Positions 3,713 through 43,340 of a DNA stretch of 64,000 bases are shown here, piece after piece; the first letter of the stretch is position 1; every line of letters begins with the position of its first letter. Source of the DNA: Leptogorgia sarmentosa (lineage: Eukaryota). Under the pieces are notes generated by a model that searched no databases, was not told the DNA's origin, and saw only the letters and a list, made by a program, of their open reading frames with translations. The stretch spans positions 25,110,001 to 25,174,000 of the forward strand of contig OZ210885.1 of the NCBI GenBank assembly GCA_964658305.1. The letters are read 5' to 3'. The translations under genes were made by a program, and so were the position numbers.

Positions 3713-4107
3713 CACTGTGACTATTTGACCGGCAGCCGGTCATTAGATTTTGTCACTAAATGACCGGCTGTATTTGTTTTGGAGCCACTGGTATATTGTT
3801 TTATATTTGAGTGATTTCAACGGAGCAAGCTTAGTGTAGTGGTTACATTGCTCGCCTCTCAACCTACAGTCCCGGGTTCGAATCCCGCATCAGACATTTA
3901 TTTTCTTCCATCTTTTTTTTTCTATTATATTGTCCAAGATTTTCATTCTAATGTAGGGAAAGGGTTAGAACTTAGGGTTAGCATTGGGGTTAGGGTTGGG
4001 ATTAGGGTTAGTTTGGGGGTTAAGGTTAGTATTTTCTGTCACTTGACTGGCTGCCGGTCAAATAGTATTTTTTGTAACCCGACCGGCTGCCGGTCAAATA
4101 GTCACAG
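3713..4107. mobile_element. MITE in a MULE intron, with an internal tRNA-like segment and TTAGGG-like repeats
   Basis: About 27-bp TIR CTGTGACTATTTGACCGGCAGCCGGTC; flanking direct repeat GTATTAAAGAT (3702-3712, 4108-4118); A/B boxes 3832-3885; TTAGGG-like tract about 3957-4030. Confidence 0.75.
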
Positions 4108-5197
4108 GTATTAAAGATAATCAATACCACATGTGGTATTTTCTCCTTAATACAATTTCAATCAATTTGAGTATAACTATAATTTGGCAATTTTCAGGAT
4201 GCTAGAGGAGGAAAAAAACAAAGAGAAGACTCAGAACATGACTACAAGAAAGGTTCTGGGGGTTATATAAAGGTGCAAGGTACTAGAAAACTTGACTGTC
4301 CTGCAACCATACAAATCCGTGCTGTGCAAATATTTACGGAGTATAAAGTTGGAGAAACAACCTCAAAAAAAGCACTTAGGAAGTCTAAGGAAGGAGTGTT
4401 GCAACAGCTTCGTGATGACTTTGAGCAAAACAAAAGCATGGTCAGTGTGATGCGCTATTATATAAAAATCCCATTGATGATGGAGCACAAATCTCATCCT
4501 GTAGGACACACAGCTACAGTTGGCCACTATGTGGATGGAAAGGTGATCGACAAAATCCATGAGCTAGTGGCATCTAACATCACCAGTCCTGTGATGGTTA
4601 GTAAGTGTTTGGAACAATATGTAGAGAAAGAACTTTTTGGTACGAGCAGCCAAAAACCAAGCAAGGCTAACCGTAGATACTATCCCAGCAAGCACTCATG
4701 TGAGTAAGTACTCATGTGATGACCAGGAGTCATTAAAAAAGAAAGTGGAGGAGTGGGAAAAGGCTACACCAAAATCCAACTATTTTGTGAGGACACGAGA
4801 TGAAGTTACTGTTAATGGTGTGACTAAGGAAAACAAGTTTCTTTTTGTGCACCAGGAAGAATGGCAAAGAAAGCTGCTGTTAGGATATGGCGGAGAGCTT
4901 GTTTTAATGGATGCTACTTACAAGATGACAAAGTATGCAATTCCACTATTCTTCGTCTGCGTTCATGGGAACACTGGCTACACGGTCATAGCTGAGTTTT
5001 TATGCCAGAATGAAGATTCAGCAAGCATCCAGGAGGCACTGGCAATTTTGAAGGCATGGAATCCCTGCTGGAACCCCAAATATTTTATGGTGGACTATTC
5101 TCAATGCTCGTAATGATATGCGAACAACAAATTAAGGACAAACAAAGGTATTATCAAGCATAATGGAATAGATTATGCGCATGGATGGGTAACAGAG

Positions 5198-5207
5198 CTA
5201 TAAAAGG
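5198..5207 (+). promoter_or_regulatory. Candidate TATA box of the YR retroelement
   Basis: CTATAAAAGG about 100 bp inside the left end and about 100 bp upstream of the ATG at 5302. Confidence 0.45.
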
Positions 5208-5301
5208 TGGAAAACGCCATGAACTCGGCTCTTGTTCAGTTACACGATTGAAAGCAAGTGGCGATCTTTTGGAAGCAAGTGCACGACTCACCCGAATTCT
5301 T

Positions 5302-5436
5302 ATGGCCGAAGAACAAGTTCAGTTCCCTCAGGAACCCGTACACGAACCAATGGAGGCTCAAATCGAACCAGCCGATCCCGCGCCGCTGGTGGAAAATCCA
5401 AATGACGCCCCAATGCCAACCGACAATGACTTGGAG
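5302..5436 (+). CDS. Predicted shared leader exon (45 aa, acidic/Pro-rich) of the YR retroelement
   Basis: ATG at 5302; MAEEQVQFPQEP...DNDLE ends at GAG|GTAATT, a phase-0 donor. Confidence 0.6.
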
Positions 5437-5890
5437 GTAATTACAATCCTTGTTCTGCATTCTTGTCATCTCAGACCTTTGTTATTTTACTGCCTCACAT
5501 CGGCTCCCTCTGCGTCGTGTTACGCTCACCAGCCTTCTCGTTCGCTGGATTCTCGCTGCATATCACGGTTCGCCCGATATATAGGTTTTCATGCTATTTA
5601 TTGTATTTGTCTTGGATAATTTCGTTGTTTCAGCATGGCCTGTCCCGTGGATTCGGGTGAAGTTCTGCATGATTACATCGCGATTAGTTGCTTTTGTGCC
5701 CACTCATGCCGTGTTAGTGATTGCCACATCGGCTGTAGTTTCGGGTTTAGTTACCGACCCTGGTGATTATGTGTTTCTCCTGTAGTTTGCCGCAGAGGTT
5801 CGCGATCCCGCCTATATTGCTATGGGCCGAGAGAACATGAAGTCTAGGCATACTTATTTGTTAGGAACGCGCCTACCTTTCTGTGCTATG

Positions 5891-6420
5891 GGCGAGATTT
5901 CGCCAGGATTGAGTTCACGGCGGTTAATATCGGCCAGGTTTCGCCAGATCACAGTGGTTTATACTGTGGGTGAGATTTCGCCAGAGACGCTGTGCTTGTA
6001 GTGCGGTGCTTTGGCCCGAGTTGACACAGTCGTTCACTAGGCGCGAGATTTCGTGAGCGACAATTACATGTTATATGGGCGAGATTTCGCCACACAGTAA
6101 TTATAGTGGTTGATCTGGGCGAGGTTTCGCCAGGCACGAGTTTACAGTCGTCAATAGGCGCGAGATTTCGCGAGCGACGAGCTTATAGATGCTGTAGGGG
6201 CGAGAGTTTGCCACACAGTAATTACAGTGGTTGATGTGGGCGAGGTTTCGCCAGGCACGAGTTTGCCATCGTCAATAGACGCGAGACTTTGCGAGCGACC
6301 GGCTTATAGATAATGTGGGGGCGAGATTTCGCCACAAAGCAATTACAGATTACAGTGGTTGGCGTGGGCGAGGTTTCGTCACGTACGAGTTTATAGAGGT
6401 TATATGGGCGAGCGTTCGCC
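5891..6420 (+). repeat. Array of 13 palindromic 14-bp motifs (GGCGAGATTTCGCC) at about 40-bp period, with a 121-bp higher-order unit
   Basis: Motif starts at 5891, 5932, 5969, 6042, 6078, 6118, 6159, 6199, 6239, 6280, 6320, 6367 and 6407. Confidence 0.9.
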
Positions 6421-6476
6421 AGAGCGACATTGCGAACCTGTATTTATTGATTGTTTTGTTTGTTTTTTTGGCCTAG

Positions 6477-7166
6477 ACCCTTAAGGCAGAACTCAAGAGT
6501 CTGCGGGAGTCGGTTGAGGTCTTAACCAAAGCGACGGTAGAGAAGGTGATCGCTAAGATATTGAATTACGCTGCGCGTCCTTTATCCGAATTCAACAAAT
6601 TTGAGGCGTTGGATATGGTGGGGAACCTCCATAATGTCTCACACGAGCAGCAACATGCCAAACATGCATATCATCGCATGGTATATCAAACGTTGCGGGG
6701 GGAAATGCCTGTCCAGACGGAGCAGTTTCGTAGTTTGCTCTTACGTTTGTTGGGTGATAAAGACCACAAACGTATTTTTGATATTGTCTCCAAGGTGGAG
6801 AAGCAATTTCAGCGCCGTGCTCGCGTTGGGCCACAGCTTCCCGATTTCAATGCTCGCGCCCGAGTTCCTCCATATCGTCGTAATGCTGGTCGGTGTTTCT
6901 ATTGTCAACGTTTTGGCCACTTTCAAGCCCAGTGCCTTCAAAAGAAACGTGATGTACCGCAAGGCCGGGGCAGCCCGGCAGGTTCCAGCGTACAATCAGT
7001 ACTGCGAAGCTTCTGTCAGTTTGCTGTACCGGCCTCGGCGTATACATATCTAGATTTTGTCAATGGAAATGCGCATATGTTAGATTTGTGTGTAATATTT
7101 ACTTCATTATATTTGGTTTCTCTGCTTTGCTTTTGTTGTTTCCATTTATTGGGTAGCATGTCATAA
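6477..7166 (+). CDS. Gag-like protein with CCHC zinc knuckle (3' exon)
   Basis: T-rich acceptor ...TTTTTTGGCCTAG|ACC, in frame with ORF 6546-7166; CFYCQRFGHFQAQC. Confidence 0.75.
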   Translation, partial: TLKAELKSLRESVEVLTKATVEKVIAKILNYAARPLSEFNKFEALDMVGNLHNVSHEQQHAKHAYHRMVYQTLRGEMPVQTEQFRSLLLRLLGDKDHKRIFDIVSKVEKQFQRRARVGPQLPDFNARARVPPYRRNAGRCFYCQRFGHFQAQCLQKKRDVPQGRGSPAGSSVQSVLRSFCQFAVPASAYTYLDFVNGNAHMLDLCVIFTSLYLVSLLCFCCFHLLGSMS

Positions 7167-7324
7167 GGTGGGGTCCACTCGGTCTTTTCCTGCGGGTCCG
7201 GGGATATGAGCGCTTTGAAACAGGGTATCTCAGTCAGCCCTCCCTGCGTTCGCGGGGTCTTGGCGATCATATCCTTGCCGACCTTTTCTGGGTCAGATCT
7301 GGGGACTTCCTTTGTCTGTTGTAG

Positions 7325-9559
7325 AGACGGGTACCTGCCACTACCGTAAGCGACCGATTTGGGCAACAAGTCCAGGAATCGGTGGCCCAGATGCCTGTCC
7401 TACAATGGATTGATTCTTCTGGCGGCCCCGTGTTGGTCGGTGGGGATATGACGCCCAATCAAGATCTTGTGGCACACGTTTCCCAGGTCGAAAAAGGCCT
7501 GGCGTTGGGAGACGTCACTACTCTAACCTTACGCGATCCACGGACGTTCCATGTGGGGGAACTGCACAATCATGTCGAGTCGTGGACGGCGATGGCATCG
7601 CGCAATCCTTCTCCCGATCAGGTGGAAGTCTTAACGTGGATTAAACATAGGGTCTCGGTTTTCCCCTATTTTCAACATTTCAAAGGGACCTACCAACGAA
7701 TTTCGTATGACTCGGACCGCCCACCGCCTACACAGTTTCCCAATAATAAAATATGTGCCCAGTTTCAGGATTTCATTACCACAACCATTCGGACTCGTGT
7801 TGCGATAGGTGCTTTTGAAGTAGTTGGACGAGTTGGGGTGGTCGAGCCCCCTCATCTCGTTCTCCCCCTCACCGTTGAGCCACGAAAACCTCGTCTTTGT
7901 TACGACGCTCGCTTTCTAAACCTGTGGATGAAGGATCAGCCGTTCAAATTGGACTCCTTGCGCGATCTTCCCCGTTACGTTGGTAAAGATTCCTACCAGA
8001 CCATTCTGGATGACAAATCGGGTTATGATCACATCTTCATGACAGACGAGAGTCGCCCGTATTTTGGCTTTCAATGGGAGGGATGGTATTTTACTTATTG
8101 CACACTTCCCTTTGGCTGGAAAATATCTCCATATGTGTACCATACTACTGGTTTGCTTCCAACAAATTTCTTTCATTCGCTAAGATTACCGTGTCTTTTG
8201 TATATTGATGACCGTCATAATGGACAACTTCAGGTGCCATTAACTGAGGGCGCATACGCTGCATTGGCGACAGATGATGAGCGCCAGTTTGCCGCTGCCA
8301 AATCGGCCATCTTTCTTGTCGTATATTATTTGGTTACTCTCGGTTACTTCCTTGAGCTGAGTAAGTCCATTCTCGTTCCGTCGAGGGTGGTTCCTTACCT
8401 CGGCTTCCGAGCAGATTCCATGCATCAGGCGTTCAGGCTCATCCTCACCAAACGCGATCGTTTTGTCCAGCTCCTACATGAGATGTTGAGAAAACCAAAA
8501 GTCACTGTTCGTGATTTGCAACGTTTAGCGGGAAAATGCATCGCTTTTTCTCTCACCGTTCCAGCGGCCAAGTTATTTACCAGAGAGATGCATTCTGCCA
8601 TTTCTAGACACGTTCGCCCTTTTCCCCTCAACGATGATCTTAAAGCCGAGATAGAGCATTGGTTATTTCTCGACAATTGGGATGAGCCTTTGCCGTGGCG
8701 GGATGAACGACATGTTCGTGTGTCTATGGCGACCGACGCGTCCAATTCGGGCTGGGGCGGACTGATGTTGTCACCCGTTTCTGAACATGTTTCGGATTAC
8801 TGGGTGGGGGCAGAGTGTAAATGGGATATTGCCACCAAGGAAGCTACCGCAATTCATCGAATGTTGTTAGCGCGTCGTGATTCGCTGCGGGACACTCATG
8901 TGGATGTTCATGTTGACAACCAGTCAGTCATCCATGCATGGAATAACGAACGTCCCCGCAGTCCTTCGCTTCTTCAGGCACTCAAACAACTGTTTTTCAC
9001 CACTCTTGACATGAATGTCGTGTTACATCTCGTCTACATTCCAACGCAGGAGAACCCGGCTGATTTACCGTCACGTCGCCTATCGTGCCTCGATAGTCAC
9101 CTAACGCATTCATTATGGAACGTCGTTCAGAGGGACTTCGGGGGCCCTCAAGGGCATACATGTGATTTGATGGCCCTCGACTCCAATGCTATGTCCGATT
9201 TGGCAGGACAGATTCTTCCCCACTTTACGCCATCACCTGGATCGGCAGGAGTCAATTTTTTTGCGCAGAATTTTTCTCAGCACCAGGATATTATGCAGTT
9301 TCCCTATGTTTTCCCTCCCGCGGTGTTAGTGGGTCCGGTTTTGTCTGTCTTGTGCAGCCTCCGTCAGCCCTGCACCATCGTGGTAATCGATGCTTATCCG
9401 AGGCAGTATTGGTGGCCGTTGTTGGTGTCTCGATCCCGCAAGTCACTCAAACTGGCGTTGAAAGACGAATCGGGAGTTCTGTTGGTTCCCTCTAACAACG
9501 GTTGGGTGCCTCATCCGGGTTTACCTGGGGACTTGTGGGTTTTTGCGCTTGAATTCTGA
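7325..9559 (+). CDS. DIRS-type reverse transcriptase-RNase H-adenine methyltransferase-like polyprotein
   Basis: LDDKSGYDH, LPFGW, YIDD; RNase H ATDAS..KEA..VDN..NPAD; C-terminal DLMA...PYVFPP...YWWP; frame opens right after acceptor CTTTGTCTGTTGTAG| at 7324. Confidence 0.9.
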   Translation, partial: RRVPATTVSDRFGQQVQESVAQMPVLQWIDSSGGPVLVGGDMTPNQDLVAHVSQVEKGLALGDVTTLTLRDPRTFHVGELHNHVESWTAMASRNPSPDQVEVLTWIKHRVSVFPYFQHFKGTYQRISYDSDRPPPTQFPNNKICAQFQDFITTTIRTRVAIGAFEVVGRVGVVEPPHLVLPLTVEPRKPRLCYDARFLNLWMKDQPFKLDSLRDLPRYVGKDSYQTILDDKSGYDHIFMTDESRPYFGFQWEGWYFTYCTLPFGWKISPYVYHTTGLLPTNFFHSLRLPCLLYIDDRHNGQLQVPLTEGAYAALATDDERQFAAAKSAIFLVVYYLVTLGYFLELSKSILVPSRVVPYLGFRADSMHQAFRLILTKRDRFVQLLHEMLRKPKVTVRDLQRLAGKCIAFSLTVPAAKLFTREMHSAISRHVRPFPLNDDLKAEIEHWLFLDNWDEPLPWRDERHVRVSMATDASNSGWGGLMLSPVSEHVSDYWVGAECKWDIATKEATAIHRMLLARRDSLRDTHVDVHVDNQSVIHAWNNERPRSPSLLQALKQLFFTTLDMNVVLHLVYIPTQENPADLPSRRLSCLDSHLTHSLWNVVQRDFGGPQGHTCDLMALDSNAMSDLAGQILPHFTPSPGSAGVNFFAQNFSQHQDIMQFPYVFPPAVLVGPVLSVLCSLRQPCTIVVIDAYPRQYWWPLLVSRSRKSLKLALKDESGVLLVPSNNGWVPHPGLPGDLWVFALEF

Positions 9560-9780
9560 TGTCTGCCTGGCTCATGTCTCCCCTCCTAGTATATTGACGG
9601 TGTTAGTGAAATGATGGTCACAGACTGCATGTACATATGTGTATATTGATATCCATAGATACATAGATATATAATTATATACCTGTAATGGTGTGATCCC
9701 TATTAAAATACCAGACGTGTCTCATCAGGTGGTTTGTATCGCTTATAGTTTCTCAGTTTGGCCGTCTGTTATTCTTTTAG

Positions 9781-11121
9781 GCACTGCCAAGTATTGCCAA
9801 GCTATTCGTTCCTTCTGTAAAATGCCCCCAATGTGGGCATGCTAATGACTATGATTTTTTATATTGCCAATGCTGTGGTTACTGCCGGAAAGTGGTTCGT
9901 CAGGCAAACTATGATCAGCCTATTGTGGTTGATGTTGCGGCTATTGATCTGAGGATCCAGCAATTGTGTAATTTTGATAAAGCCACGAGTTATTCCAAGC
10001 AGAAAGAGTCGTTGCAACGAGAGTTGGAGGTGTTTTTAGCTGCTCTCCCTGGCCGTCGCTCCATAGTGTCAGCTGCTCCCAGCGATCTATGTCGTTTTTT
10101 GGTTTATAAGGATAAAGATGGAAAAACCCAGGTTCATCAACACGGCTGCCAGTTTCTGGGTCAAAAGGGAAAACATGGCTGTGGTTGTCCTATGCGACTT
10201 TCCTATAAGACGGTGGATTCGTATATTGGTAAGCTGCGATCTATTTTTCACGCAAATGGTCGAGATGGTGAATGGGATAAGCGGCTGGGTCTAGGTAACC
10301 CGGCAGCTGATAAGTCAGTTAAAGACTATCTACGCTTGGTGACTGCTGAGCAACTGCAAGCACGAGTTACACCTAAGCAAGCTACTCCATTTTTTGTTGA
10401 CAAGTTGACACAGTTGTCTTTACACCTTGAACGCAAGCTGGAGTCTGCTACAACGTCTATTGACCGGTTTCTCGTCGCTCGAGATCAGGCGTATTTCAAA
10501 CTCGCCTTTTTTAGTGGGGACAGGCCTGGTGACCTGGGCCAGATAAAAGTTCCGGAGATTCTCCGCTTTCCCAATGACGATGGTATGCTGCTCAATCACA
10601 TTTGGGGCAAAACGCTACGTGACGGCGATCAGAATGTTTTTGGTGTTCGTCGTAATCCGCATATCACCATTTGCCCTATTCGAGGTGTTGAGCAGTACAT
10701 TCAGGTTGCCCGTCAGATGAAAGTGGACCTCACTTCGGGATATCTCTTCCGCCCGACGACTCCCAAAGGGGGAATTCAAGATGCGCCATTCACGTCTTCG
10801 GCGGCCAAAGCTCGTTTAAAAGTATATTTAGGACAAATGGGAATGGATGACGGGGAGACGCTGCATGGGTTTTGAGCGGGCTGTGCCATTACTCTTGCCC
10901 TTACTGGTGCTGATCTGGCGGACATTATGCAGCATGTTGGCTGGGCTCGGCGGCATACAGCTTTGTATTATATGCAGTTGGCCAAGGTCTTACATCCCGC
11001 CGGAGCTTCTGCTCGCTTGGCCTCTGAGGATCTTGGGAATGCGGTTAACCCGTGGCAGGATGCAAATCAATTGCAACGATTTGTGGCCGCATTTCCTGTA
11101 GGCGCCTCGACGCGTTCGTGA
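9781..11121 (+). pseudogene. Zn-ribbon + ALOG domain + tyrosine recombinase; catalytic HxxR Arg replaced by TGA
   Basis: CPQC..CQCC; ALOG-like GKTQVH..C..CGCPMRL..VDSYIGKLR..NP; SGDRPGD, GKT, TLHGF*AG (TGA 10873-10875), HVGW..ALYY continuing in the same frame to 11121. Confidence 0.88.
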
Positions 11122-11211
11122 GTTTGGTGGTGGGAGGTAAATGTAGGTGGCTACGAGTGTCGTACTTGGTGTGATAACTAGAGGATAGGTTCAGGAGGAA
11201 AGTTAGTTTTG

Positions 11212-11282
11212 GGGTTAAGGAATGAGTATTGGGTTAAGGAATGAGGATTGGGTAAGAAATGAGTATTGGGTGAATGAGAGGG
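11212..11282 (+). repeat. About 19-bp G-rich tandem repeat (GGGTTAAGGAATGAGTATT), about 4 copies, in the 3' end of the YR element
   Basis: Units start at 11212, 11231, 11250 and 11268. Confidence 0.8.
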
Positions 11283-14200
11283 TATGTTGGATTTGGTTCG
11301 TGGGGATGATGAGGATGGGCGTATAGACAAAAAGGATCAGGTTGGACGCTGGCGCTGATCAATATTGCCATACCTTAAATAAACTGAGCATGAAGTCGAG
11401 CATTGAGAAATAGTATACTATTCCCTTGCTGAGATTGATGCAATTGAGAAGTGTTTTCCAACAATCACTGTCTATATCTGTGATTTTCACAGGGTCCAAG
11501 CTTGGCAAAGGTGGGCCAAGGCCAGCAAAAATGGTCTTTCCCATGACCAACAAAAGGACTTCCTCAGGCTGATGCAAAACTTGGCATATGCAGGAACACC
11601 AGAGCAGTACAACAAAAAGCTTGAAGAATTGAAGAAATGAAATGTGTATGTGGAGAACCGCAAAGTTCGTGATTATTGTGATAAGGTGTGGCTGCAGTGC
11701 TTTGGTCGGTGGGCACATGCTTTTAGAAAGCAACAAGTGGCCAACATAGTCAACACTAACAATGGTGTTGAAAGGCAAAACCACCTTTTCAAGTACAGTT
11801 ATCTGCCACGATCGATTGACAAGTCCATATATGGTATAGCACTGATGCTGGTAGAGTCATTCATACCAGACTCATATCAACGGTACCTGGACACCAACCT
11901 GAAACTGAGCAGCTGCCACAGAAGATATAATGAAGCTATTCCAGAATATTTGCACAATCGGCCACCCAACTTTGTGAAACACTGCCTCAAAAGCAAGTTC
12001 CCCTCAGCTGAATACAAGCAGTATGACATCAGGTGTGTCAACCATGAAAGGGGTGAATTTCTAGTTAGAAGCACTCATGACAGCAACCTGTTCTATGCTG
12101 TTAAGTTTGAGACACCTAGCTGCCAATGTGAAAGTTGGAGAAAATCCCAGTACCCATGCAAGCATTTCTTTGCAATTTTTAATTTCTTTGATGAGTGGAG
12201 TTTTTCATGCCTCCCAGAATTCTACAGAAATAGCGTTTTTCTCACCCGTGACATTGACCATGTCACTGCTCATATGCCTGCAGGGTTAGATGTAGAGCCT
12301 ACAAAGCAACAGTGTAGCTCTCAATGTGGTTCAGTAAAGAGTAATGATGATGCCAACAGTGAGGGATTAGAGAATGAGAACATTATTTCTGTGGCAGAAG
12401 CTGACCATGATTCTGATCGGAAACCAGACGAAGGGAATCCTGATGAAACAGCGAAATCATCCACCTGGCAACCTAATGCAACGAAAGTCCGTAGGATTCT
12501 TCTGGAAAAATTAGACTCTCTAAAAAATCTTGCTTTTGTTGTTGACGACTTCAAAGCACTTGACGATGCCAGTTCAGCCATTGACAAAATCATTTTGGAT
12601 CTTTATGGACGTTGCACTGATCAAAATGGGCTTCCACTATGCCAAAGTCCAGTTAAAAAGAAGCTGAAGTGTTGATTACCATAAGGTGTTTCACAAGAAA
12701 TTGCCAAAGCGAAGAAAGTTTACGAAGAAAGTTGCATCTCATGTCACTGTAGAAGAGAAAAAGCCTGTGGAAACTATTACAACAGAGGAAGTGAGTTTGT
12801 TCAGTATTTTGTGATATTTATATAATATGAATGTTTAATATTTGATATTTGATTTATATATTATATATATTTGATCTGCAAGTTGTTTTATACAGGTTGG
12901 TTCAATTTGTGATGTTGAGGAAACAAATGTTGATGGCATTGATGAAGTACAACCAATAGATGTAGATGTCAGTGCGACTGCCAGGGCATCTAGCAAATGC
13001 CTCTTCAATAGGTATGAAATAAATGCACTGTCAGGCTGAACAATAAAGATGTCATTCAATCACAACATGACCTATTTTTGCAAAGTCTGTGTTATTAAAT
13101 GTCTTGTACATTAAGACTGAATTATACAAAGTCTATTTGTTTATTTTTTAGTGAATTAGATGATGGACAGTACCAAAAATGTGACCCGGTGACACTAGTG
13201 CAGTCAACTAAACTGTCTTTAAAGGCTAATGACTCTGTACTGACAATCGGTCCCTTTAAAGTCACATTATCAGACTTATGGAGTATCCTCCAGCCTGGGT
13301 CTGTGAGTCCATCTGTTTGCAAACAGATAAAGGATGACGTACATAGATTTGTGCCAGGATGGCTTGCTGACACTGTAAGTTAAAAAATAATTGCATTTTT
13401 TGTTGAATTCTAGATTAGGCTATTAAGCACATGCAGAATTATCAATATTTAATGTTTATGTCATACTCTGTAGATTATCGACTCAACCTTGTGGAAAATT
13501 TCTCATGCTGCCAAACACATTTTGTGTGCAGATACAACGCTTGGCGAAGTTGTAAAACGTGGCTCAAGCACTCGCCGTCTCTGGCATGGTGTGAAATTTG
13601 ACAACATAGAGAAGATTCTCATCCCACTGAACATCAGCGGAGTACACTGGAATTTGTTTGTAAGTGCAATTTCACTATTATATTTATATACAATAGTTAT
13701 GTTATTTACAATAATTATGTACTAATTAGTTCTTACTTTGTTGATGGGTGGTGTGTATGGCATGGAACTGTAGAGTATGTATTGTATATTAATGTACTGT
13801 ATTTTAGGCACTACCCTGCAGTTTGGGGGGGGACTCAATCATCCAATTGTGTGGCTAATTTGTTAAATTATAGAATAACAGGAATAGGTAACAGTGTGAA
13901 TATTATGGCCTTTATGGCCTCTACATGTACAGTCAGTTACCTGCACCCTTGCTATTTTATAATTTATTTATTTTTTATACTTTTTTACTCTAATCAAATC
14001 AGTTACTAACATTGTAAACTATTTCTGTTGCAAAGGTCATTGACAAAATTCAAAAAAGTCGTATCTATATGACCCCATGAATGGAAACACTGCTGCATTA
14101 AAAATAGAAGCCACTTCAAGTCTTTTTCAGCTACTTGATCAATTGAGGTACTGGTACTACCGTATGTTAATGTATTTCTCATTTCTTAGTGCATATACAT

Positions 14201-14670: not shown

Positions 14671-17600
14671 GAGCGAAATGTGGATGTTTGCAAAATCTGC
14701 AGACTAGCAGACAATGATGATTGGCTTGGATGTGATAAATGTGGCCAGTCCTTTCATGCAAGCTGCCTTGGTGTAAATTATGCCGAGGCATTATGTGATC
14801 CATTTTTTTATTGTCCGTGAATAGCAATCACTAATACTGTACAAATTTGTCATTTATCTACATTGAAAAGTTCATATATTTCCGCTTATTTATTATTTGT
14901 ATAATAATATTTTGTTCATTTTATATCCTCCAGTGGCTAGATTTGACCCCCTTTGGGTATACATATATGTATATATAGGTGACAGCTATAAAATAGTATA
15001 CATACTTGTGATAACTTGTGATAACTATTGTTATCATATTGCAATAGTAATACTGTAAATACTGTATTGGCTACAGTTTAGGAGTATGCATATACACAAT
15101 AAGTAATGACTATAGTATTAAGCTATTACATTTAATGACAGCACCCCCCCTGTCTGGGATGCTGGAAAGCTTCAGCTGGTCATGTTCAAAATAAGTAAAT
15201 GATCATTAACTTCTTTAGGAATTATTTAGGGGTAGGCTTTTTTGAAGCAAATTTCATGTCTTAAAATTTATTTCTGTGGGGTAGTTCATCTCAGATAAGA
15301 ATTTTTCAGGTTCAATGTTCAGGGTAGGTCTGTCTGTTCCAGGAAATCTTAATAGGGGTATTTGGAAATATGGGTCCTCAGCTGGGGGGTAAGAACATTA
15401 ACTGTAATAGCGAATTTAGGACGATATTTAACGTTTTTTAATATACAAAGGGAAAGTTAAGGAATGATATAATAATAATACTGACACTATTTAATTAAAT
15501 TATATATTATATAATAATACTAGTATACCAGTTGGCAGTTCACAATAAATGAATAATAAATATGTTTTCAATTCATGTTCAATATTTGCAGTTGTATTAC
15601 ATTTAACACATATTTATGACTAACCGGTAGTAGTTCCATACATCAGATATTGGAATTTTCCCATTATAAAATGACGATAGAACAGTGTAAATAAAGTCAG
15701 AGTCCAAATTTATTGAAGCAGCGACGTGCCGCAAAGGCAACAAGCTGCGTGGTGCGTTCAGCTTGTTCAGGCCTTGAGAGATGTTCACTACAGTACCGCT
15801 GACAGTATATGACCAGATCGCGGACACGGGTCACAGAGCGCCCGGGATAAATTGCTTACCTATTTCTTGGACAGAAAAGACCTGAAAATGTGCATAGACT
15901 CACTGATGTTAATTATAGTGACATTTGCAAATCTGAATTACGAAGATCTGACCGAAGAGCTGCAATGTGTGTTGAAAATATCTTCTTTAAAACTAAGAAA
16001 TTACAAATGAAGATTTTGCTTGGCCAGTCACAAGTTGCATTACGAAAGTCTCGAAGAAATAGTGGGACAATTACTGCTGGTCAACTAAAACAACCTGGTG
16101 CAATAACCTGGTGCAATAGAGAACATGATTCACCATGATCAAGGATTTAAATTTCTAAGAGCTGTCAGGGGTTCACCTCCATATTTTGAAAAAGCCAAAA
16201 AGGACATATTTGCAATGATTAGGCAATTAGGTCCTGCTTCATTATTTTGTAGTTTCTCTTCTGCAGAAACACAATGGGGATTCATTTACTGAGAATACTT
16301 GGTAAGCTTGTTGATAACAAAGAATACACTGACAGTGAGCTTGAAAATCTCAACTGGGAAGAAAAGAGCATCTTAATTCAAAGTGATCCAGTGACATGTG
16401 CTAGGCACTTTGATTATCAAGTACAGAAATTTTTGAAAAATTTTCCTTTGAGTGAACCTGCACCTCTAGGCAAAATTGCAGACTGGTTTTACAGAGTTGA
16501 ATATCAACAGAGGGGATCACCTCATATTCATATGTTAATATGGTTAGAAAATGCTCCTAGGTTTGGTGTAGATTTTGACTATGATGTTGTTTCATTCATT
16601 GATAAAGTAATCACATGTGAAAAACCAGTTGAAAATCCAGAGTTACTTGCACTTGTAAATAGACAGGTTCATTGCCATTCTCACACTTGTCGAAAGAAAT
16701 CAAAAACTGTATGCCGCTTTAATTACCCACAACCACCAATGAAGTCAACAACAATTCTATATCCATTAGATACTGATATAAATAATAATGAACTAGAACA
16801 ACACAAAAATGATTGGAAGTTTATTAAACAACATCTGAATGATATGAAAGAGGGCGAGGACATTACATTTGATCAGTTATTGATAAACTTGAAACTGACA
16901 GAACAAAATTATTTGCTAGCTATTCGATCCAGTCTGAACACACCAACTATATTCTTAAAAAGACAACCAAATGAATTAAGAATCAACAATTATAATGCAG
17001 CATGTCTTAGTGCATGGCGAGCTAACATGGACATTCAATTTGTACTTGATGTTTATGCATGTGCACTATACATTGTATCGTATATATCCAAGGCACAAAA
17101 AGGTATGAGCGAGCTTTTAAGATCTGCTTGTGAAGAAGCAAGAGCAGGAAACTCCAATATTAAGCAACAAGTAAGAGACATTGGAAACAAGTTTTTGAAC
17201 AATGTTGAAATAAGTGCACAAGAAGCAGTCTATATTGTACTGCAACTTCCTATGAGAAAATCATCTCGCCAGGTAGTCGTTGTAAACACTTCACCTCCTG
17301 AGGAAAGAGTTCAGTTACTAAAGCCATTGAAAGAAATAAATCATATGGAAGATGATTCCAATGAGGTTTATAAGGTTAAAAAGCGTTATACAAAACGACC
17401 AGCCAAACTTGAAAATTTATCTCTTACTGATTGGGCTGCCTGGTATGACTGTTCTGGTAAGCCATATATCAAACCAACCAATGAACTAGATAGTGATAGC
17501 TATCCTGTGGAGACAAATATGGATGATAATGATGATGATGATGATAATGACGACAAGGAAGAAAGAGAATATGAACTAAAAAATAAGAAAAGATCTAAAG

Positions 17601-20600
17601 CTAGGATTATTTGAAGTGTATGTTTAAATAAGGAAGTTGATTCTGAGAAACACTACTGTGAACTGATCATGCTATTTACATCATGGAGAAATGAAACAAC
17701 TGATTTAATAAAAAACTGTTCTTCCTATCAAGAGCATTTTTTAAAACTTAAAACTACAATTGATCAACAAATGAAACAGTATGCTATTTGTAGTGAAGAC
17801 CTTGATGATATCCAAGAACAGCTTGATAATATGGAAGATAACACTGACAACTATGATTTAGTTGCCCCAGGAACACAAAATGTTGAGCGTCAAGATGAGT
17901 CTGAAGGTACACTAGATCTTCATCCACAACTAAATCCAAACTATGATCTTTCTGGTGATCTTGGAATTCCTTCAACAGCATCCAATACTGAACAACTAAT
18001 ATTACATGAAGAACAGGATGATGTTTATAGAACTATGGTACAAAAGCTCAACAAAGAACAAAACGAATTTTTTTATCATGTCTTACATCTAATCAAAACT
18101 TCTGACAATCCTTTCTATTCTTTTCTGAGTGGAGGAGCTGGAGTTGGGAAATCACATCTCAAATGTTTATACCAAGCAGCTTTGAAATATTATAATACTA
18201 GAGCCGGTGATGATTTTCATCAAGTCAAAATTTTACTGCTTGCACCAACTGGTAAAGCAGCTTTTAACATTAAAGGCAACACAATTCATAATGCATTTGC
18301 TATACCAGCATCTCAGTCCTTAAAAAATTATAAAGGACTTGACTCAAGTAGACTAAACACTTTGAGGTGTCAGTTTGGTGGTTTAAAGCTAATATTTTTG
18401 GATGAGATATCCATGGTTGGTAGTACAATGTTTAATGTTCAGATCAATAATAGATTAAAAGACATCAAGGGGAGTAAAGATGACTTTGGGGGTGTAAGCA
18501 TAGTTGCATTTGGTGATTTATTTCAACTTCCCCCAGTAATGGATAGGTATATATTTAAGAGTCTAGACAACTCAGAATATGCAATTCTTGCTCCCAATAA
18601 ATGGGAAGAATACTTTAATATGTTTGAACTCGAAGAAATAATGCGACAGAGAGAAAGCAAGGTTTTTGCTGAAATACTAAACAGACTGAGGGAAGGAAAC
18701 CATACAAAAGAAGATATTATAGAAGAAGAGCGAAATGTGGATGTTTGCAAAATCTGCAGACTAGCAGACAATGATGATTGGCTTGGATGTGATAAATGTG
18801 GCCAGTCCTTTCATGCAAGCTGCCTTGGTGTAAATTATGCCGAGGCATTATGTGATCCATTTTTTTATTGTCCGTGAATAGCAATCACTAATACTGTACA
18901 AATTTGTCATTTATCTACATTGAAAAGTTCATATATTTCCGCTTATTTATTATTTGTATAATAATATTTTGTTCATTTTATATCCTCCAGTGGCTAGATT
19001 TGACCCCCTTTGGGTATACATATATGTATATATAGGTGACAGCTATAAAATAGTATACATACTTGTGATAACTTGTGATAACTATTGTTATCATATTGCA
19101 ATAGTAATACTGTAAATACTGTATTGGCTACAGTTTAGGAGTATGCATATACACAATAAGTAATGACTATAGTATTAAGCTATTACATTTAATGACAGCA
19201 CCCCCCCTGTCTGGGATGCTGGAAAGCTTCAGCTGGTCATGTTCAAAATAAGTAAATGATCATTAACTTCTTTAGGAATTATTTAGGGGTAGGCTTTTTT
19301 GAAGCAAATTTCATGTCTTAAAATTTATTTCTGTGGGGTAGTTCATCTCAGATAAGAATTTTTCAGGTTCAATGTTCAGGGTAGGTCTGTCTGTTCCAGG
19401 AAATCTTAATAGGGGTATTTGGAAATATGGGTCCTCAGCTGGGGGGTAAGAACATTAACTGTAATAGCGAATTTAGGACGATATTTAACGTTTTTTAATA
19501 TACAAAGGGAAAGTTAAGGAATGATATAATAATAATACTGACACTATTTAATTAAATTATATATTATATAATAATACTAGTATACCAGTTGGCAGTTCAC
19601 AATAAATGAATAATAAATATGTTTTCAATTCATGTTCAATATTTGCAGTTGTATTACATTTAACACATATTTATGACTAACCGGTAGTAGTTCCATACAT
19701 CAGATATTGGAATTTTCCCATTATAAAATGACGATAGAACAGTGTAAATAAAGTCAGAGTCCAAATTTATTGAAGCAGCGACGTGCCGCAAAGGCGACAA
19801 GCTGCGTGGTGCGTTCAGCTTGTTCAGGCCTTGAGAGATGTTCACTACAGTACCGCTGACAGTATATGACCAGATCGCGGACACGGGTCACAGAGCGCCC
19901 GGGATAAATTGCTTACCTATTTCTTGGACAGAAAAGACCTGAAAATGTGCATAGACTCACTGATGTTAATTATAGTGACATTTGCAAATCTGAATTACGA
20001 AGATCTGACCGAAGAGCTGCAATGTGTGTTGAAAATATCTTCTTTAAAACTAAGAAATTACAAATGAAGATTTTGCTTGGCCAGTCACAAGTTGCATTAC
20101 GAAAGTCTCGAAGAAATAGTGGGACAATTACTGCTGGTCAACTAAAACAACCTGGTGCAATAACCTGGTGCAATAGAGAACATGATTCACCATGATCAAG
20201 GATTTAAATTTCTAAGAGCTGTCAGGGGTTCACCTCCATATTTTGAAAAAGCCAAAAAGGACATATTTGCAATGATTAGGCAATTAGGTCCTGCTTCATT
20301 ATTTTGTAGTTTCTCTTCTGCAGAAACACAATGGATTCATTTACTGAGAATACTTGGTAAGCTTGTTGATAACAAAGAATACACTGACAGTGAGCTTGAA
20401 AATCTCAACTGGGAAGAAAAGAGCATCTTAATTCAAAGTGATCCAGTGACATGTGCTAGGCACTTTGATTATCAAGTACAGAAATTTTTGAAAAATTTTC
20501 CTTTGAGTGAACCTGCACGTCTAGGCAAAATTGCAGACTGGTTTTACAGAGTTGAATATCAACAGAGGGGATCACCTCATATTCATATGTTAATATGGTT

Positions 20601-40155: not shown

Positions 40156-40416
40156 GCATGCCTCTGATACGTATCTGGAATACATGCCTCTGATACGTAT
40201 CTGGAATACATGGAATACATATGTCTCTGATACGTATCTGGAATACATGCCTCTGATACGTATCTGGAATACATGCTTTTGATACGTATCTGGAACAAAA
40301 GCCTCTGATACGTATCTGGAATAAATGCCTCCGATACGTATCTGGAATACATGTTTCGGATACGTATCTGGAATACCTGCCTCTGATACGTATCTGGAAT
40401 ACAAGCTTCGGATACA
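40156..40416. repeat. 26-bp minisatellite with palindromic core GATACGTATC, about 10 copies
   Basis: Unit ATGCCTCTGATACGTATCTGGAATAC. Confidence 0.92.
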
Positions 40417-42087: not shown

Positions 42088-43044
42088 AATGAGTTTATTT
42101 TACACACTTAGCAAAACATTAGTAACAACAAACTAATCACCTTACTTTTAACACTTTTACCTTTTTCAAACCCACTAATCGACTCAAAATGTCATTACAG
42201 AAGTCTGTATCGTTCCCGAATCTGAAATGTTGAACAGGCATTTTTGCATGTAAATAAATAAGTTGTGTAAAGTCTTTGGATACTCAAGCGTAAAAATGTA
42301 ATAACATGCGAATAGAGTTGGTAGTCCGCGACCACCAATATTCGTGAAATGGTATCTACAACATAGCCTACATTGATTTTTGTGACGCTTGCGTGCATAT
42401 TTTTTTCACAAAACATATAACACAACTTGGCGTTCTGAAGAGGGTGTGAAAACCGCCTAAATGATGCCCTGAAAAAGACGAAGACAACGTCCTAGACTAA
42501 ACCGGAAGTAAAATTCTTATTGCCACGCCATTTTCACATCGTCTTAGATGTCGCGTCGTGTTCTAAATCTATCTATTATAATTTTTATAAGAACCCGTTA
42601 ACACAGGCAGGCAGGCTGTAGCAAGGAAATTTTTGTGTCCCGGTAGAACTGAACTCACCAAGTATCAAATAATTATGGAATTCTGCTGATAACAAAGCCA
42701 TGTAAGAAATTGATGGAATATTTCAAAATATGAAAGCAAAAATATCCCAACCGCCTTATAACCGGTATATCCAAGAATACAAGGTTTGCTCCTCTGAAAT
42801 CTTTTACTGCATCTTTTACTGCATCTTGCAATGTAGCTGGGCCTAACTCCTCCAGACAGTTTCTCTCAATAACTCCAACCAGACTGCCCAAGTATATTTT
42901 TCAGCCTTGTGTAAAGGAATGAGTATGTGATGATTTGTATTTTGCATCCCCTTTCAAATCTTTTTTTGTCAATTTCTGTCCTTTTAACTTGAATGCTCTG
43001 TATGGAATGCCAGGACTGTCTCATGTTATTAAAACTGATTATTT

Positions 43045-43340
43045 TGGGTGCTTTTATATTTATATAGGGTGCTTTTATATTTATATAGGGTGCTTTTATA
43101 TTTATATAGGGTGCTTTTATATTTATATTCGGTGCTTTTGTCTTTATATTGGGTACTTTTGTCTTTATATTGGGTGCTTCTGTCTTTATATTGGGTGCTT
43201 TGGTCTTTATATTGGGTGGTTTTGTCTTTATATTGGGTGCTTCTGTCTTTATATTGGGTGGTTTTGTCTTTATATTGGGTGCTTTTGTCTTTATATTGGG
43301 TGCTTTTGTCTTTATATTGGGTGCTTTTGTCTTTATATTC
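43045..43340. repeat. 21-bp minisatellite GGGTGCTTTTGTCTTTATATT, about 14 copies
   Basis: Direct tandem units; explains spurious ORFs 42935-43403. Confidence 0.93.

Follow-up and report, generated by a model that had tools for sequence, protein, structure and literature searches.

In retroviruses, packaging and dimer-linkage signals sit downstream of the major splice donor, as do the MLV Psi palindromes and HIV-1 SL1, and RRE or CTE elements serve the export of intron-containing retroviral RNA. Tandem units in the 5' part of a retrotransposon are familiar from mouse L1, in which the 5'-UTR monomers are promoter units of ~200 bp, variable in number and located at the very 5' end. To our knowledge, how DIRS-order elements select RNA for reverse transcription is not known. 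According to a report on Dictyostelium DIRS-1, retrotransposition factors are presumed to be located at the 5' end of the transcript, from the left repeat to ORF1, and to compete there with splicing (PMC7192593). ALOG-containing DIRS1-type retroposons, which occur in cnidarians, encode a Zn-knuckle Gag, RT with RNase H and a Zn ribbon/ALOG recombinase, and an Ectocarpus element of this type carries 159-bp terminal direct repeats (Iyer and Aravind, 2012; PMC3537659). That paper contains the word "intron" 0 times and the word "repeat" three times, i.e., for LRR or terminal direct repeats. In PMC3266345, the terms tandem, intron, hairpin, stem-loop, palindrom and minisatellite have 0 occurrences, and in the open-access literature that we searched neither arrays of the kind reported here nor introns in DIRS-type elements were described.

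The 64-kb stretch of DNA that we analyzed (the window) contains on its plus strand a DIRS-type (ALOG tyrosine-recombinase) retrotransposon copy of ~6.3 kb, located at 5094-11423 by Pfam matches and junction reading, with the same domain set as the ALOG-containing DIRS1-type retroposons (PMC3537659). Its limits are 5094 and 11416/11423, the 7-nt sequence ACTATTC being present at both edges (5094-5100 and 11417-11423), and contigs of the family start to match at 5094. The insertion splits a MULE/ZSWIM-type transposase gene, the halves of which lie at 4183-5093 and from 11424 on; Pfam matches were obtained for ALS2CR8 (4183-4707) and ZSWIM RNaseH-like/MULE (4625-5113) in the left flank and for SWIM (11641-12675) in the right flank. 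A gag-like frame (6477-7166, plus strand) encodes a CX2CX4HX4C knuckle. Its 24 homologues at E<=0.001 include a single named one, from the octocoral Paramuricea clavata, which makes a cnidarian host likely. The gag-like frame is followed on the same strand by an RT/RNase H frame (7325-9559) and by a Zn-ribbon, ALOG and tyrosine-recombinase frame (9781-11118). RT and RNase H, as expected of the DIRS-order ALOG class, were recognized at 29.9 bits for RVT_1 (cut-off 29.6) and 24.2 bits for RT_RNaseH, the latter just below its cut-off of 24.8, and the ALOG domain (PF04852) in the recombinase frame scored 81.3 bits against a cut-off of 26.6. For the putative catalytic domain of the recombinase, conserved boxes were read by eye, with no Pfam or NCBIfam recombinase match. 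Within one of these catalytic boxes, the frame is broken by an in-frame TGA (10873-10875), so the window copy is not intact. Unlike the Ectocarpus element with its 159-bp direct repeats (PMC3537659), and lacking the long terminal repeats of DIRS-type elements, this copy has only inverted termini of 13 nt (5098-5110 and 11397-11409), extending to 13-19 nt at most. No second copy of the element was found in the 64-kb window by DNA or protein search.

Transcription, splicing and the transcribed strand of the element are those that we infer from its sequence signals. A TATA-like box, TATAAAAG, at 5199-5206 on the plus strand, lies ~100 nt upstream of the leader ATG and may act as promoter; a related element, L073, likewise has GCTATAAAAG, ~119 nt before its own leader ATG. 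The predicted leader exon (5302-5436, plus strand) comprises an ATG and 44 codons (MAEEQ...TDNDLE), with a phase-0 end at GAG followed by GTAATT. The predicted first intron of 1040 nt (5437-6476, plus strand), defined by sequence signals only, ends in tttttttggcctag followed by ACC and holds the array that is the subject of this report. Immediately before each of the three long frames (6476/6477, 7324/7325 and 9780/9781), there is a polypyrimidine tract followed by an in-frame TAG, an acceptor-like site that reads ttattcttttag in the case of the recombinase, and none of the frames has an early ATG. In particular, the first position of the gag frame is 6477 and no ATG precedes residue 47; gag relatives start at the same TLK position. 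The array begins 454 nt behind the donor (5436/5437) and ends 56 nt before the first acceptor (6476/6477). Because splice-like signals flank it and the downstream frames are ATG-less, the array would be present only on unspliced RNA. A first-pass annotation had placed it inside the first intron, and it does lie between this donor and this acceptor, although both are predicted splice signals.

The array (5891-6420, plus strand) consists of 13 copies of a palindromic 16-nt motif, G-GGCGA-GATT-TCGCC-A, the 14-nt core of which (GGCGA-GATT-TCGCC) recurs ~40 bp apart and always on the same strand. When up to two mismatches were allowed, the pattern GGCGAGATTTCGCC had 15 matches in the 64-kb window versus 0.22 expected, a number reached by 0/100 shuffles. 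All but one of these matches (14/15) fell within 5891-6420, where the plus-strand sites number 11, and three perfect ones among them match on the minus strand too. Two further sites, 6042 (CGCGA..TCGTG) and 6280 (CGCGA..TTGCG), have 3-4 mismatches each and were found by direct reading. Successive units are spaced by 41, 37, 73, 36, 40, 41, 40, 40, 41, 40, 47 and 40 bp, and the 73-bp gap possibly contains a decayed unit at 6003-6016, in which 8/14 letters agree. TRF detected a plus-strand higher-order repeat of 121 bp with three unit types at 6026-6348 (2.7 copies, score 437, 84% matches), the period of which splits into 40/41-bp sub-periods; the adjacent 121-bp copies at 6065-6185 and 6186-6306 are 87% identical. 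The GC content of the island in which the array lies is 47-50%, versus 34-39% elsewhere. Pattern search and direct reading bore out the 13 copies ~40 bp apart that the first-pass annotation had claimed, sequence reading confirmed its CGCGA..TCGCG type at 6042, 6159 and 6280, and the TRF period agreed with its three-motif 121-bp super-unit. A known RNA family was dropped as the identity of the array, Rfam having returned 0 matches at E<=1 over 5000-7400. A CRISPR array was likewise rejected, given that the linkers are interrelated and repeat with the 121-bp period and that the array lies in a retrotransposon of a eukaryote.

The array is real, non-random, constrained below the level of the unit, and family-wide. 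In a gapped MAFFT alignment of all 13 units, mean pairwise identity was 0.82 over the 16 motif columns and 0.47 over the 25 linker columns (Mann-Whitney p = 6e-6), the latter value being consistent with the earlier statement that the linkers are related to each other. Conservation extends to positions that do not pair, i.e., the flanks G0 (11/13 units) and A15 (13/13), and to the loop letters G6 and T9 (13/13 each). By hand count, recent 121-bp copies differ from one another about as often in the motifs (4/42 positions) as in the linkers (12/79); this counts against a packaging/dimerisation signal and is as expected for a dead copy.

These data bear on the explanation of the array as a hairpin-driven minisatellite without function, which we regard as somewhat unlikely, albeit a serious contender. 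Here, pausing and slippage of the reverse transcriptase or of the replication fork at the hairpin would lead to more frequent duplication of those units in which it is retained, and the array would grow and shrink. The head-to-tail units and the 121-bp higher-order structure found by TRF are those of a minisatellite, and the leader intron is the element's one long stretch without coding constraint. Furthermore, non-coding tandem repeats of retrotransposons that seed satellites are well described (PMC7004042). Like those repeats, the window array is a minisatellite with higher-order units, apparently amplified beyond element number; unlike those repeats, it has a constrained 16-nt sub-motif and strand-specific pairing. 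Among the units of this copy the palindromes are better kept than the linkers, so that plain neutrality, under which all unit positions would diverge alike, is rejected by the two identities. Nor does slippage alone predict the kept flanks and loop letters.

Since a palindrome pairs on both strands, only G.U pairs discriminate between them. On the plus strand, 64/65 cells of the 5-bp hairpin stems and 88/91 cells of the 14-nt self-duplexes were paired, compared with 59/65 and 67/91, respectively, on the minus strand. The 5-bp hairpin was able to fold in 12/13 motifs on plus RNA versus 7/13 on minus RNA, and an unbroken 14-bp homoduplex was obtained for 10/13 motifs on plus RNA and for 0/13 on minus RNA. 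Stem transitions were C>T, giving G.U on the plus strand, in 5/5 cases, with 0 G>A (one-sided binomial p = 0.03); the strand test rests on these five events, four of which are at CpG. Differences between this copy and the X1 family contigs over 5000-7400 were unskewed (C>T 18, G>A 13, A>G 17, T>C 14). A G-C outer pair is present in 10 units and a C-G outer pair in three, and the motif centre is A-U in six units, G.U in four and C-G in one (a double change, 6407), the centre variants GAUU, GGUU and GCGU all being self-complementary given wobble. Covariation in the array amounts to one or two independent events. The compensatory swap of the outer pair that had been pointed out earlier is present, but it is one event only and is equally explained by a symmetric DNA site. 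Because the G.U and strand measures are all better on the plus strand, the sequences favour plus-strand RNA as the level where pairing would matter, on few independent events. The better-kept hairpin pairing on plus-strand RNA also lends support to the structured RNA proposed in the first-pass annotation. Under the minisatellite explanation, a hairpin pausing the enzyme in the RNA template would account for the plus-strand G.U bias as well.

Thermodynamic folding of the whole array gave -230.1 kcal/mol (z = -7.98) for the plus strand, with long inter-unit helices, and -152.9 kcal/mol (z = -2.55) for the minus strand. When the whole putative intron was folded, local hairpin pair probabilities were 0-0.36; in this model, 13 separate local hairpins are disfavoured and the motifs pair with each other, which corrects the hairpin array of the first-pass annotation and counts against a packaging/dimerisation signal. 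The self-complementary RNA with an intermolecular duplex that is expected of a dimer signal was obtained in the 14-bp homoduplexes on plus RNA. The strongly negative free energy and z-score of the plus strand and its long inter-unit helices would also suit a source of small RNAs, in which the plus-strand array, as long imperfect dsRNA, would be diced to siRNA or give piRNA precursors that silence the family. We consider this very improbable, and it leaves the conserved flanks and loop unexplained.

Our tentatively preferred reading, which we hold to be plausible though short of probable, is that the array is a multimerised Gag-binding packaging/dimerisation signal carried only by unspliced full-length RNA. 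Transcription would start upstream of the leader, near the TATA-like box at 5199, and the single leader exon (5302-5436) would be spliced to three phase-0 acceptors at 6477 (gag), 7325 (RT) and 9781 (recombinase). Each spliced mRNA would shed the array and the genomic RNA alone would retain it. On the genomic RNA, each motif would form a 5-bp tetraloop hairpin or, together with the same motif on a second RNA, an uninterrupted 14-bp duplex, the latter being possible because GAUU, GGUU and GCGU are self-complementary with G.U. The multiple copies would provide avidity for the zinc-knuckle Gag, acting in cis or in trans, and the Gag-bound array would mark the RNA for reverse transcription. This reading draws on the conservation of motifs over linkers, the plus-strand pairing and array fold, the covariation, the position of the array, its retention in other copies, the parallel array of L073 and the presumption made for DIRS-1 (PMC7192593); the small number of covariation events, the L073 array with its lack of a structure signal and the array-less L062 speak against it. 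Like retroviral Psi and SL1, the array is predicted to be absent from all spliced mRNAs, its self-complementary motif could pass from a hairpin to an intermolecular duplex, and the element has a zinc-knuckle Gag. Unlike them, the motif is short, is present in 13 tandem copies in a tyrosine-recombinase retrotransposon and is known from sequence alone, and most copies of its family are without gag. As with the mouse L1 monomers, units are repeated in tandem within 5' non-coding sequence of a retrotransposon; however, the units of the array measure 40 bp, and both the predicted start and the leader exon precede them.

The positional and strand evidence for the packaging/dimerisation signal applies equally to a splicing or export signal on RNA, whereby the repeats would delay splicing or recruit an export factor and so bring full-length RNA to the cytoplasm. 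A spliced retroelement must get its unspliced RNA exported, and the last motif ends as close as 56 nt before the acceptor. Nothing separates export from packaging, however, and the relative L062 does without an array; we judge this explanation to be quite improbable.

Other copies of the family were assessed in contigs from sequencing runs of two organisms, A (X1 and X4) and B (X5). Summed word depth over the array, which does not equate to copy number, was up to 15028 in X1, 58 in X4 and 124 in X5. Over 6458-7105, where all coverage came from error-free contigs of this locus, depth was 100.3 in X1, 1-4.5 in X4 and 0 in X5. Coverage gaps in X5 and X10 were not counted as evidence unless a contig joined across them. 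X1, X4 and X5 each have one contig in which 6434 is linked to 7165 through 25 other letters; an abundant family form thus lacks the gag segment (6435-7164) yet keeps the array. Absence of the array from other copies, which the first-pass annotation had named as evidence against its proposal, was not observed, the array being present in contigs of two organisms. Conversely, its suggestion of packaging by the CCHC Gag is weakened, as the CCHC gag segment is missing from the very form that retains the array. Indeed, neither the abundant family form nor L073 has an intact gag, which argues against the packaging/dimerisation signal. Ngaro types without ORF1 have been reported in Cafeteria (PMC8547959).

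The depth of the array units also argues against packaging, being far above that of the rest of the element, as in an expanding minisatellite. In X1, the units reached 15028 compared with 842-2747 for the rest of the element, i.e., ~150x the unique segment and ~5-15x the rest of the element, an excess that suggests longer arrays, or free-standing arrays elsewhere. Retention of the array by the gag-less form, on the other hand, speaks against a minisatellite without function.

Just before 5094, X4 and X5 contigs have loose ends whose sequence is that of the right end of the element, from which it follows that a right-end-to-left-end joint exists in both organisms, as tandem copies or circles. 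When the ends are joined head to tail, a 14-nt perfect palindrome, AATAGTATACTATT, is formed within a ~37-nt near-palindrome centred on GTATAC. The sequence ACTATTC occurred once in the target gene and now flanks the element on both sides (window 5094-5100 and the 11385-11423 region). The ACTATTC flanks and the junction palindrome would be compatible with a crossover made by a tyrosine recombinase within a common core of 7 bp.

These ends are relevant to a further explanation, which we rate as unlikely, namely that the array is a set of DNA-level sites for a dimeric protein, either a host transcription factor or the element's own Zn-ribbon/ALOG recombinase. Such sites could serve as an enhancer downstream of the start, or as accessory sites that help the recombination complex to assemble. 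The 5+4+5 palindrome puts the half-sites about one helical turn apart, the flanks and centre are kept beyond the needs of pairing, and all sites share one orientation. That the motif is specific to the family would be in keeping with co-evolution with a DNA binder encoded by the element, ALOG domains being recognized both in the window (81.3 bits) and in L073 (97.3 bits). Sequence-specific DNA binding by the ALOG domain is proven; in plants, the domain binds YACTGTW, and it does so as a monomer, as found for Arabidopsis ALOG, which is at odds with a dimeric site (PMC10927535). Based on the window-wide density of this motif (54 per 64 kb), ~0.45 exact matches are expected in the array, versus two found (6223 and 6351), both in linkers. 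The palindrome was therefore rejected as the known ALOG site, with two exact YACTGTW matches in 13 units and 0 within palindromes, and the ALOG-YR DNA-binding array put forward in the first-pass annotation is weakened. Moreover, a G.U pattern confined to the plus strand is unexpected for double-stranded DNA, and the start is ~800 bp from the element end. The recombinase has to work at the ends of the element, which have a sequence of their own and lack the motif, and the palindrome was dropped as the recombinase core site. At the joined ends, AATAGTATACTATT contains two inverted TACTATT, each one letter off YACTGTW. Because the joined ends carry this near-match to the ALOG motif, the recombinase's own sites are more likely to lie at the termini than in the array, as judged from sequence. 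An E2F-like reading of TTTCGCG/TTTCGCC was also discarded, as the match to the E2F consensus is imperfect.

Two related elements were reached, L062 and L073, both in the 12-Mb bin G001. This bin is filed as "MAG: bacterium" and contains eukaryotic retrotransposons with introns; it is thus at least partly host DNA. A search of 60 other genomes for an ALOG recombinase, as relatives of G001, found none, and G001 itself yielded the two elements only. The decayed L062 is 41% identical to the window element in gag and 50-60% in the recombinase, and its ~200-nt intron-like stretch upstream of gag contains no array. L073 (G001:C101, 783-7367) is 42% identical in RT and 45% in the recombinase and has intact RT and recombinase frames, with gag reduced to a 37-codon remnant. 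The ALOG domain of L073 scored 97.3 bits, and its protein matched the solved ALOG structure 8p5q at E = 2e-10 and Cre weakly at E = 0.34. L073 is bounded by split direct repeats (A1 783-974, B1 6926-7021, A2 7005-7196, B2 7272-7367). Its layout comprises a TATA box, a proline/glutamine-rich leader exon ending in AACGAG followed by GTAGAT, and acceptor-like sites before three frames, i.e., the gag remnant, RT and recombinase.

At 1237-1900, downstream of the donor and upstream of the acceptors, L073 carries a palindrome array of its own, with ~16 copies of GTGCC-N6-GGCA in 59- and 104-bp periods. This array gave no thermodynamic signal (z = 0.11 and 0.04) and no covariation, the four inner pairs being kept at 56/64 versus 55/64 on the two strands. 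In local alignments among the two arrays and the L062 stretch, 49/300, 53/300 and 97/200 shuffles scored as high, and common descent of the three introns or arrays was dropped. The survey of other ALOG-YR elements called for by the first-pass annotation thus had a divided outcome: L073 has a different array at the same position, whereas L062 has none. The shared position of the L073 and window arrays is suggestive; it also fits repeated birth of minisatellites in an unconstrained stretch. The family-specific sequence counts for the minisatellite explanation too, with another motif in L073, none in L062 and no significant similarity between the arrays.

A broader proposal, which we put forward as speculative and on balance doubtful, is that spliced tyrosine-recombinase retrotransposons evolved a retrovirus-like discrimination between genomic and messenger RNA. 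A family-specific self-complementary motif, multiplied in the shared intron, would dimerise full-length RNA and recruit Gag, and gag-less derivatives would keep the motif for mobilisation in trans. If the array is a packaging/dimerisation signal, the DIRS order would gain its first defined RNA signal acting in cis, and the location of this signal in the spliced-out part would be a case of convergence with retroviruses. If it is a hairpin-driven minisatellite, it would be an ordinary case of satellite birth inside a retroelement. The array supplies a concrete 16-nt candidate ligand for the element's Gag knuckle and ALOG/Zn-ribbon domains.

Searches beyond G001 gave no further relatives. No relative was found in viral contigs scanned with the array pattern and with RT, gag and recombinase queries, and a protein search with the frame that reads through the array gave no candidate. 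The array-pattern scan of metagenomes returned 61 loci, none of which encoded gag, RT or recombinase or matched the DNA of the element. Most of these loci (L001-L061) are metagenome contigs of ~60% GC from few samples, with an unrelated 10-bp satellite, GCGAGAYTKC. At L030 (4678-5024), a minisatellite of 41/51 bp at the contig end has units with GGCGAGGTTTCGCG followed by AAAATCTCG; this contig resembles the element neither in protein nor in DNA.

Several other features were observed in the window. Frames with an OTU protease domain and DUF6570 are located at 75-2484, and a 90-bp unit is repeated seven times at 1144-1977, inside the 880-2484 frame. Just upstream of the MULE-type gene, inverted repeats of 27 nt that are perfect and a tandem pair of 36 bp, all within 3715-4107, may represent the terminal region of that transposon. 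Inverted copies of a 47-nt sequence (2849-2895) occur at distances of 13 and 17 kb (15814-15860 and 19871-19917), and a perfect 300-nt direct repeat occurs at 14671-14970 and 18728-19027, 4057 bp apart; together, these probably reflect another mobile element or a segmental duplication. Further tandem arrays are present at 40211-40415 (26 bp, 7.8 copies) and 43039-43339 (21 bp, 14.3 copies).
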